Below, piece by piece: positions 3,001 to 6,000 of a stretch of DNA of 22,254 nt. The position numbers are program-made. The DNA is taken from IMG/VR virus record IMGVR_UViG_2648501165_000020; one strand, written 5' to 3'. This stretch comes from a virus (lineage: Duplodnaviria > Heunggongvirae > Uroviricota > Caudoviricetes). Position 1 is the first letter of the stretch; the number at the start of each line of letters is the position of its first letter.

Positions 3001-6000
3001 TAAAGGATGCTGCAATTAAGACAACCGAAGTTGTGGGCGCTCTCAGGGAAGAGACAACAAGAACGATTAGTGGTATTGAAACCCGCATAACCACACTGGA
3101 TTCGTCAACCAGTGAATCGCTTAATGAGGTCGACAAGCGCATCACTAAACTGGATAAAGAAGGCGGTGAAGCGTTTCTGGCGATGTGGTCAAAAAAAGCG
3201 GGAGTTGATGGCATCACTGCGGGGATCGGGATTGTCGCCGGAAAAGACAGTGAAGGCAGGCCTGTAAGTCAGGTTGCAATTTCTGCGTCGCAGTTGTTTG
3301 TCTTTGACCCGAATAATCCGGATAACACAGCCTATCCGTTTGCGGTATCAGGTGGCAAGGTAGTGATCCCGAAAGCGATGATTTATGACGCGGTGATTGA
3401 AACACTGGTGTCGCGGAAGGTTGTGGCGGATGAGGTAAAAGCCGGGGTAAGTATCACTTCGCCAGTTATCCGGAGTGCCGTTATTCAGAACGGAAACTTT
3501 CAGGTTGATTCTCAGGGTAACCTGAATATTGGAGGCCTTTTCAGTGTTACGTCACAAGGGCAACTGACAATTCGTTACTCTAATCAGAATGTAGGACTGG
3601 TGATCCGCAATGATAAAATTGAGGTTTATGACCAGAATGGACGACTGGCTGTTCGCATAGGCAGATTACGCTGATCAGGAGGTGAGTATTGGAATACGGT
3701 TTTGCCATTTATAACAGAAATAACGTTAATGTTACGGGCGTGCTGACTCCAGTATTTTTCCTGGACAGATTTACAGCGGAGTCTGGCTCAAAGACGTACA
3801 CTAATAAACCCGACGGGAAATCATTGCAGGCTGTATGTTGTTTATTTCCCTGGAATAATGTATTTGCGGATCGGAAAGTACCGAAGATAACCATTAATGA
3901 CAATACGGTGACGTGGTCGAATCTTGAGCAGGGTATGGGATCTTATATTTATACATTCTGGGGATAAGTGTTATGTACGGTTTGAGCATTATGAAGCCGG
4001 ATGGCAGCGTATGGATAAGTCCAGGTTTTACGCCGCAGTGTCTGATCAACAAAGGCACCATACCGGCGACTGAAAAGTCTTTTTTTAAAACATCAATCCC
4101 GTCAGGCAAAAGTTGTTTTTTCTTTATCAGAACAGAGAAGAAGGCCGATGTCATGTACACGCATGAACAGATTGATGGATATCATGCACTAAGGCTTCAT
4201 GTAATTGTCAGGGGAACGAACCCTGGTGTTACGACGGTTTATGCTTTCGCGAATATGGTTACTCCACCTTCTGAGTATGGTATCGCCATGTATAACCCGG
4301 ACGGTGAGATGATTTATCATGGCGAAATGATGCTGCTTGACGCGAAGTTAATACCTGTTGATATCAAATTTGAAAAGGACCTTGGATATCCATGCGCAAT
4401 CATGCCTGCACTGGTCGGGTATTATAACTGGAAAAGAACTCCTTATGATCGACCGATTTATACCACATCCACTGGTGCTACAGGAAATAAAATATATTCC
4501 TGTGAGCATTATTCCGGTGGTGCAACATGGGATATTCGAAAGCCGTATATAGATAAGGTCCTGGTTATTAATACATCAGTATATGATTAGTTGAAGCGAG
4601 TCTTTAATATTCATTTAAAATGTCTAAAAAGATGTATTATTAAAAAGTTTAGCGTGTTATCTGAATACAGGATATCTTAAATGAAGAGTATAGCAACACT
4701 GGTTGTGTGTGCAATCTCCGGGATTGCCTGTGTAAATTTATCTGCACATGCAGCAGAAGGAGAGCATACAATTTCTCTGGGGTATGCGCACTTTCAGTTT
4801 CCGGGACTGAAGGATTTTGTAAAGGATGCGACTGCTCATAACAGGGAGACTTTCAGTCATTTCGTCAACAGAAACTACTTTTCTTCATTGGGCGAATATA
4901 CAGATGGTCGGGTCAGTGGATATGAAGGCAAGGATAAAAATCCACAGGGCATTAATATCAGGTATCGCTACGAGATAACGGATGATTTTGGCGTTATCAC
5001 CTCTTTTACATGGACGCGTTCTCTCACTAACTCACAGACATTTATTGATGTGCAGTCAGCCGATCATACCAGGAAGATTAAGAATCCGGCAGCTTCTGCC
5101 AGAACGGATATCAGGGCGAATTACTGGAGTCTGTTAGCGGGGCCTTCATGGCGGGTTAATCAGTACATGAGTTTATATGCGATGGCAGGGATGGGCGTTG
5201 CTAAAGTTAGCGCTGACCTGAAAATTAAGGACAATATTAACAGTAGTGGCGGATTTTCTGAAAGCAACAGCACGAAAAAAACCTCCCTTGCGTGGGCTGC
5301 AGGTGCACAGTTTAACCTGAATGAGAGTGTTACACTGGATGTGGCTTACGAAGGTTTCGGCTCTGGCGACTGGCGCACGAGTGGCGTTACTGCTGGCATT
5401 GGCCTGAAATTCTGACCTGTATCCGGTAACCGTTTACTACCCGCTGTGATGGCGGGTTTTTTATTGCCCGTACAGGGCAAAAACCGTAAATTATGCGTGG
5501 GTGCCTTTCGGCTGATGGCTGGAGGGTGAACCTGAAGGCCTGATGTGGAAAGGCCCCGAGTCAACTTAACGTTAACCCGAGGCCCTAACACTTCGTACCT
5601 TAAGCAAGTAGAAGGTTAGCGCCTCTCTGTAAAAGGAGTCAAGCGCTATGTCGCAAAAATCGCTTATCACCGTCACAATTTGCATGACGGTTATCTTCAC
5701 CATCTGGATGTTGCACGGTTCACTGTGTGAGTTCCGGCTGAATTTGTGGGGAGCGGAGTTTGCGGCGTTCTTACAGTGTAAGCAGTAGGAAAACCGCGAC
5801 GGGGACGAGAGTCCCCGTCAACTGGTTGCTGAGGTTCAGCCGATATGGCACCCGTTTCAGGTGAGAGAATGAACGATAAAATTCTCTGGTATATGCAGCG
5901 TGTTGTGAGAAATTCCCGCAACCCTGAATTTATGAATGAAGTTAAAGACGCCTGCCTTAAAAAGCAGGCGTTTTGTTTTGAGGCACCTGATGGCTTTTTG

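Follow-up and report, generated by a model that had tools for sequence, protein, structure and literature searches.

The hok/sok locus (parB) of plasmid R1 and the hokW-sokW locus of the Shiga toxin (Stx) prophage Sp5 are the closest described relatives of the locus treated here, a 46-codon hok-family gene with its putative regulatory elements, located beside lom in a viral DNA record of 22,254 nucleotides (nt) (IMG/VR record IMGVR_UViG_2648501165_000020, Caudoviricetes), the whole of which is called the window below. Two-state folding of the messenger is a hallmark of hok mRNAs, known from the work of the Gerdes laboratory. The segment at 5463-5853 of the window very probably constitutes a complete, mobile type I toxin-antitoxin cassette of the hok/sok type, carried as a moron beside lom in an Stx prophage of the 933W/Sp5 type. 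In Sp5, hokW-sokW is switched on by RecA-dependent induction and raises phage release about two-fold (Takada et al. 2021, PMC8621323). A survey preprint of 2025-26 catalogs 32,532 hok loci and 1264 peptides, reports that hok is enriched in prophages, with two copies in 3.5% of the hok-bearing phages, and places Sok, Mok, and mRNA structure outside its analysis (Escalera-Maurer et al., bioRxiv 10.1101/2025.08.07.668861).

Like hok/sok of R1, the lom-adjacent locus encodes a predicted Hok/Gef membrane peptide that retains the conserved residues (C, T, LCE, and E) behind a long structured leader, and it has a predicted tac-fbi pairing to which tac-ucb is the alternative, a predicted leader stem-loop as the antisense target, and a candidate convergent promoter within the leader, from which a short hairpin antisense RNA would be made. 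It differs from the R1 locus in its shorter peptide (46 against 52 amino acids [aa]; 30% identity to Hok of R1 by BLASTP, E value of 9e-7), in a leader that scores below the Rfam gathering threshold, in the lack of a conserved mok overlap, in an antisense U-tract of 3 U, and in being borne by prophages and islands rather than by a plasmid. The hokW-sokW locus of Sp5 shares the prophage type, the layout, and the placement of the antisense -10 hexamer TAACCT, whereas HokW has 51 aa, its leader reaches 112 bits on the Rfam model RF01794 against 35.6 at the lom-adjacent locus, and its orientation relative to the tail genes is the opposite one. The NCBIfam HokA and Hok-family models match the window peptide below their equivalog and subfamily cutoffs. 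The best-scoring named model is that of HokA of Escherichia coli K-12 (NF007290), with which the peptide shares the M-P/S-Q-K start, the W-M motif, SLCE, and AAFL-x-C, although it stays short of the equivalog cutoff (38.4 bits against 89); in the clusters of the survey preprint, drawn at 60% identity, HokA falls into cluster 93 and the window peptide into cluster 72.

The toxin gene and its place in the prophage

The open reading frame (ORF) runs on the plus strand from ATG 5648 to TAG 5786-5788 and encodes the peptide MSQKSLITVTICMTVIFTIWMLHGSLCEFRLNLWGAEFAAFLQCKQ. It matches the Pfam family PF01848 (HOK_GEF) with 33.2 bits against a gathering score of 22 (E value of 4e-8), with residues 8-44 aligned on positions 6-42 of the 42 in the model, and it matches PHROG 251 ("MokW-like host killing") with an E value of 2.8e-24. 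The peptide contains I-C-M-T-V at residues 11-15, L-C-E-F-R at residues 26-30, and E-F-A-A-F-L at residues 37-42. According to the sequence logo of the survey preprint, seven residues are conserved in more than 80% of the 1264 Hok peptides (M1, C16, T18, L30, C31, E32, and E41 in the logo numbering; bioRxiv 10.1101/2025.08.07.668861), and all seven are present in the window peptide as M1, C12, T14, L26, C27, E28, and E37. With a similarity far beyond chance, the ORF is to be regarded as a genuine toxin gene of the Hok/Gef family. A preliminary description of the window had proposed exactly this 46-codon ORF, on the basis of the three motifs, and had suggested alignment to Hok/Gef family models; the coordinates, the motifs, and the alignments all bear the proposal out. 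It had also judged that the 74-aa minus-strand ORF displayed by the ORF track in this interval was probably spurious, and so it appears, as this ORF has no Pfam match and is absent from the RefSeq annotation, and as the hok family members share no minus-strand frame that is constant in length or position.

Conservation was assessed in a family set of 69 unique sequences from IMG/VR, phages, E. coli, and Salmonella, with ORF counts made on 63 of them and the antisense-target hairpin compared in 27 unique variants; the pattern with which the relatives were gathered already prescribed part of the hairpin stems. The toxin ORF has a length of 46 aa in 61 of the 63 sequences, and the GGAG that precedes it is kept in 68 of the 69, with CGAG in the remaining one. 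In an Stx2a phage lineage (LC616044.1, Stx2_8243, and one IMG/VR copy), the insertion of one G close to the 3' end of the ORF leads to a 44-aa product with an altered C terminus ending in NLWGSGVCGVLTV, and the toxin is probably inactivated.

The preliminary description had called the gene unannotated, which is correct for the ORF track with its 60-aa cutoff and for the original 933W record (AF125520), in which nothing is annotated between lom and L0129, but incorrect for RefSeq and for recent phage records. The RefSeq annotation pipeline PGAP annotates 5648-5788 exactly, as "Hok/Gef family protein" (WP_000078907.1), and the names used in phage records include "MokW-like host killing," "host toxic membrane protein," and "small toxic polypeptide." For the VT2-Sakai match, no Hok-like product is listed under the aligned interval. 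The implied novelty was likewise overstated, given that the gene has been annotated and cataloged and that the identical peptide has been cloned for toxicity assays. The alignments of the survey preprint hold this peptide as number 1589, and its Table S2 gives it as 72_1589, a member of a high-abundance cluster, cloned as LRP157 (bioRxiv 10.1101/2025.08.07.668861); the amino acid sequence is identical to that of the window peptide, while the cloned DNA differs at synonymous sites. Of 45 Hok homologs whose expression in E. coli was driven by an arabinose promoter, 42 were toxic, and the only constructs named as nontoxic in the text are 19_179, 60_1482, and 69_1540, so that 72_1589 is not among them; the peptides 72_1621, 79_1563, and 82_1289 (clusters 72, 79, and 82), which belong to relatives of the cassette in other contexts, were also cloned and tested (bioRxiv 10.1101/2025.08.07.668861). 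The same text does not discuss the lom-adjacent phage locus individually. In a search of the main texts of the literature, no mention was found of the peptide, of its WP accession, or of hok in combination with 933W and sok; the transcriptome supplements on ciprofloxacin-treated enterohemorrhagic E. coli hold no Hok entry, and the sole relevant mention in the preprint on the Pas small RNAs (sRNAs) is that of the Rfam Sok family near PasA. With the gene in RefSeq and in phage records, its family cataloged as a Hok cluster, and the identical peptide cloned and assayed, the gene, the family, and, as read from the preprint, the toxicity of the peptide were all known already, and the finding is an ordinary one that adds little new biology.

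The window is, judged from its sequence, part of an E. coli Stx prophage of the short-tailed 933W/Sp5 type and covers the tail and accessory region. The hok interval is 100% identical to many chromosomes of Shiga toxin-producing E. coli and to the phages 933W, VT2-Sakai (Sp5), Min27, the PA series, and others. From left to right, the gene order is tail fibre genes, lom (4681-5415), the hok ORF, a series of hypothetical genes, and a gene for a 2806-aa LPD38 protein, and every gene annotated up to position 17433 lies on the plus strand, in the same sense as the hok cassette. The published hokW-sokW locus lies elsewhere in the same window and was overlooked by the preliminary description. An Rfam scan of the window at the gathering threshold gave a single match to the "sok" family (RF01794), at 18596-18770 on the minus strand (112 bits), and YO-349, a primer published for hokW, matches 18741-18765 on the same strand, where the ORF is that of the 51-aa HokW (coding sequence at 18449-18601). 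Identity of the lom-adjacent locus with hokW-sokW was considered and rejected, since the primer and the Rfam match place hokW at about 18395-18770 (minus strand) and HokW is only 37% identical to the lom-adjacent peptide, which makes the lom-adjacent hok, on sequence grounds, a second and divergent hok locus of the same prophage. The well-studied Stx2 phages 933W and Sp5 carry two different hok loci. The HokW of the window reads MKQQKAI..., an M7I change relative to the Sakai sequence encoded by the published primer (MKQQKAM...). In a related prophage of E. coli E2855 (NZ_AP018796.1), hokW (29111-29184) is annotated as a frameshifted, incomplete pseudogene and the lom-adjacent hok is intact.

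Predicted messenger and antisense RNAs

The features of the cassette are collected in Table 1. The predicted hok transcript starts at G 5499, downstream of a candidate promoter whose hexamers read TTGCCG or TTGCGG and TAGATT or TACATT in relatives. The model RF01794, which has the orientation of the hok mRNA leader and extends as far as the hok AUG, matches the plus strand at 5499-5661 over its full length (positions 1-157) with 35.6 bits and an E value of 2e-6 in a permissive search of 601 nt. The fold of 5499-5856 has a predicted energy of -155.4 kcal/mol (z = -6.5), and both its minimum-energy and its centroid structures close 5499-5515 on 5836-5853, that is, the tac-like element on the fbi-like element. 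In the 69 unique sequences, the 15 tac-fbi pairs are standard in 90% of the cells, against 29 to 49% when the 3' partner is slid by 1 to 3 nt. The helix is retained in the alifold consensus of these sequences, with double-sided changes in 3 of the 15 pairs; the variation consists mostly of changes from G-C to G-U on the fbi side, and the copy of Salmonella diarizonae has CGAU/AUCG in place of the CGGC/GCCG of the window. In the predicted fold of 5499-5822, which lacks the 3' end, tac-ucb pairing and the stem-loop at 5579-5625 take the place of the tac-fbi closure. The tac-ucb pairs are formed in 89% of the cells and are invariant, hence without covariation, and the complement of ucb provides the antisense hairpin with its 3' arm and U-tract. 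The target stem-loop is kept in all 27 unique variants, with variation in its upper stem. The 3' untranslated region (UTR) contains a further perfect hairpin, which reads on the minus strand (5797-5820) as an intrinsic terminator and might shield hok from transcription that enters from downstream.

The preliminary description had expected a cis-antisense Sok-like RNA on the minus strand over the leader and hok mRNA elements within it, and both expectations find support at the level of prediction, the latter in the significant though subthreshold RF01794 match and in the predicted tac, ucb, and target hairpin. A Sok-like antisense RNA is probable at the leader in view of its candidate promoter and of a 16-bp hairpin with compensatory changes. 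The sense sequence AGGTTA, the complement of the antisense -10 hexamer, occurs unchanged in 69 of 69 family sequences, with a spacer of 17 to 18 nt. The sokW promoter has the identical hexamer, TAACCT, at the same relative position, and the published primers for a promoter-less sokW mutation target this site (Takada et al. 2021, PMC8621323). The predicted antisense RNA folds with -30.0 kcal/mol (z = -4.5). Its hairpin contains four G-U pairs, which correspond to C-A mismatches on the sense strand and render it more stable on the minus strand than on the sense strand, and this points to selection acting on a minus-strand RNA. The apex of the hairpin changes with compensation across the family, for example UUAAC/GUUGA against AAACA/UGUUU. 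The 5' tail of the antisense RNA is its most variable part across the family, which is the pattern expected if the tails set specificity among paralogs. For the Sok-like RNA and sokW, the predicted tail-target duplexes have energies of -33 and -39 kcal/mol in the cognate combinations against -16 and -21 kcal/mol in the noncognate ones. In IMGVR_UViG_3300021279_000032, two cassette copies lie about 720 nt apart (4366-4409 and 5088-5131) and have different antisense 5' tails.

Table 1. Features at and around the lom-adjacent hok locus (positions in the window)
Feature	Position	Strand	Details
Intrinsic terminator 3' of lom	5439..5463	+	Hairpin 5439-5457 and T-run; from terminator scan and sequence
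Candidate hok promoter	5464..5492	+	-35 TTGCCC (5464-5469), 17-nt spacer, -10 TAAATT (5487-5492)
Predicted full-length hok mRNA, ~355 nt	5499..5853	+	RF01794 position 1 at 5499; homology ends after 5853
tac-like 5' element	5499..5515	+	Pairs with fbi (full-length RNA) or ucb (3' end removed)
Short leader ORFs	5543..5619	+	ATG 5543-5569 (8 codons) and GTG 5545-5619 (24 codons); in mok position, neither overlaps hok
ucb-like box	5548..5557	+	GAAAGGCCCC; alternative tac partner, 9 of 10 pairs; forms in the fold of the truncated RNA
Predicted Sok-like RNA, ~59 nt	5548..5606	-	~20-nt single-stranded 5' tail, 16-bp hairpin, UUUCC; both ends predicted
Antisense-target (sokT-like) stem-loop	5579..5625	+	In the minimum-energy structure of the 3'-truncated RNA; equivalent to the third RF01794 consensus hairpin
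Candidate Sok-like promoter	5613..5642	-	-35 TTGACT (5642-5637), 18-nt spacer, -10 TAACCT (5618-5613)
hok Shine-Dalgarno sequence	5635..5638	+	GGAG, 9 nt 5' of the ATG
hok-family toxin coding sequence, 46 aa	5648..5788	+	Peptide 72_1589 of the Hok catalog; RefSeq WP_000078907.1
74-aa antisense ORF of the ORF track	5697..5921	-	Exists; unsupported as a gene
Perfect 9-bp 3'-UTR hairpin	5798..5819	+	GACGGGGAC/GTCCCCGTC; followed by TTTTCC on the minus strand
fbi-like 3' element	5836..5853	+	UCAGCCGAUAUGGCACCC; complementary to tac

In place of mok, the window copy has two short leader ORFs, opened by conserved start codons, which end 78 nt (8 codons) and 28 nt (24 codons) before the hok ATG. No conserved mok frame overlapping hok, a defining regulatory feature of the R1 paradigm, was found in any of the three frames or in the 63 relatives, among which a leader ORF reaches into hok in only 14, and the stops of the leader ORFs are scattered. 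The GGAG of hok lies about 30 nt beyond the antisense start, and the route from antisense binding to the ribosome-binding site of hok is uncertain.

Limits and distribution of the cassette

Relatives of the cassette, with 68 to 100% identity, occupy four unrelated contexts and also occur in Salmonella. The contexts are the lom side in Stx phages, the ogr side at the edge of P2-like prophages, the site after J and before the tail fibre gene in lambdoid prophages, and the ure island of O157:H7. Homology between contexts begins at ATTGCC, about 36 nt 5' of GGGTGCC, and ends directly after the ACCC at 5853, so that in all four contexts the left edge coincides with the candidate promoter and the right edge with the end of fbi. 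These limits, which do not depend on the context, indicate a mobile unit of about 390 bp at approximately 5463-5853. The cassette was matched in 1750 of 5426 complete E. coli genomes. In addition, a scan of species-representative genomes with a pattern for the end of the coding sequence returned four loci, two in Salmonella, one in a Vagococcus sp. assembly, and one in a Planococcaceae metagenome-assembled genome; the latter two copies are nearly identical to the enterobacterial P2-type cassette and most likely represent assembly contamination.

Proposed control and alternative explanations

Most probably, the locus operates in the manner of hok/sok. By analogy with hok/sok of R1 and with hokW-sokW, the full-length mRNA would be stable but translationally inert, and the antisense RNA would not act on it until slow trimming from the 3' end takes off fbi and activates it. 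As long as the unstable Sok-like RNA is produced, it would bind the target hairpin and no Hok would be made, either by blocking initiation at the leader start codons (5543 and 5545), by directing cleavage of the duplex, or by both. Once antisense transcription is stopped or outrun, Hok would enter the inner membrane and collapse it. The least certain step is the coupling without mok, in which translation of a short leader ORF, with its end 28 nt ahead of the hok ATG, could unfold the target hairpin beside the Shine-Dalgarno sequence. This widespread cassette, which lacks a conserved mok frame, offers a convenient natural case for the question of how an antisense RNA controls hok without mok. 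Candidate roles of the locus are prophage addiction, the exclusion of other phages, and a contribution to lysis upon induction, of the kind reported for hokW.

Several observations weigh against the interpretation as a complete cassette. With no conserved overlapping mok, the coupling mechanism of R1 cannot be assumed to apply. The antisense hairpin is followed by only UUUCC, with 3 U, which is a poor U-tract for an intrinsic terminator. The leader match of 35.6 bits stays below the RF01794 gathering score of 59, and the leader is missing from the scan at that threshold. A consensus scan for promoters and terminators over 5380-5960 called no promoter on either strand and reported only the lom terminator and the minus-strand hairpin, for which reason the candidate promoters were located through homology with sokW and through conservation; both are weak matches to the consensus, and both RNAs are predictions. 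The support for the structures consists mostly of conservation and not of covariation, as tac and ucb are nearly invariant. The frameshifted hok of some Stx2a phages indicates that the toxin is dispensable at least there, and that 72_1589 is toxic is deduced by elimination from what the preprint states.

One alternative, unlikely although compatible with the cassette interpretation, is that the locus serves mainly as an accessory lysis factor of the late operon, partly redundant with hokW, and not as an addiction module. The lom terminator is predicted to separate the cassette from lom transcription in ordinary, non-antiterminated conditions, whereas antiterminated late transcription following induction would pass it, make hok RNA, and collide with the convergent sok promoter, so that Hok would appear late and assist in lysing the host. 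That late transcription reaches the lom-adjacent region is our assumption from what is generally known of 933W, and this dependence counts against the alternative. The uninterrupted run of plus-strand genes with the cassette in sense favors it, as do the reported effect of hokW-sokW on phage release and its RecA dependence (PMC8621323). The VT2-Sakai copy of the lom-adjacent locus is 100% identical. The only functional study, that of hokW-sokW, left this locus in place and does not mention it (Takada et al. 2021, PMC8621323); the two-fold phenotype may thus understate the contribution of Hok toxins to phage release. However, the same cassette is found outside late operons as well, at the ogr side of P2-like prophages and in the ure island, which argues that the cassette itself is not specialized for late lysis.

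A related and more speculative proposal, in which we place little confidence, is a mok-less variant of hok/sok, in which a short leader ORF that does not overlap hok, or decay triggered directly by the duplex, replaces mok. Given the sense orientation of the cassette among the late and tail genes of its strand, antiterminated read-through upon induction would supply hok RNA and at once silence the convergent sok promoter, and the locus would act as a second lysis-timing device redundant with hokW. If true, it would explain why deletion of hokW-sokW alone only halves the release of Sp5.

The locus might instead be a decaying hok relic, a silent locus in which the toxin ORF survives while the regulation, including mok and the termination of Sok, has been lost through degeneration. 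Pedersen and Gerdes reportedly described several of the chromosomal hok loci of E. coli K-12 in 1999 as decayed and nonfunctional, and the absence of a conserved overlapping mok, the weak antisense U-tract, the subthreshold Rfam score, the frameshifted hok in one Stx2a phage lineage, and the hokW pseudogene in some strains all fit such a history. However, the promoter, tac, ucb, the target hairpin, fbi, and the antisense -10 hexamer are, over about 70% identity and the four insertion contexts, more strongly conserved than the coding region, and as a relic is not expected to keep conserved regulatory elements, this explanation is disfavored. The intact ORF in nearly all relatives, the presence of the cassette in about a third of the complete E. 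coli genomes, and the toxicity of the peptide, as read from the preprint, also speak against a relic, which we regard as improbable. That the 74-aa minus-strand ORF is the real gene and the Hok similarity incidental can practically be dismissed, for although no other ORF of the interval exceeds 60 aa, this one has no family match, is unconserved in frame and length, and is not annotated by PGAP, whereas the plus-strand ORF matches Hok models with E values of 4e-8 to 3e-24.

Two minor observations concern other parts of the window. The gene downstream of hok (5845-6246, plus strand) has its RefSeq start at ATG 5845, which overlaps the fbi element; the ATG at 5869 (MNDKIL...), just beyond the edge of the cassette, is the likelier start because the alignment to PHROG 610 begins at residue 9. 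In addition, the Rfam family sRNA-Xcc1 (RF02221) is matched at 21075-21163 on the minus strand with 69.1 bits against a threshold of 53, a position that lies inside the coding sequence of an antA/AntB antirepressor in a nearly identical strain.

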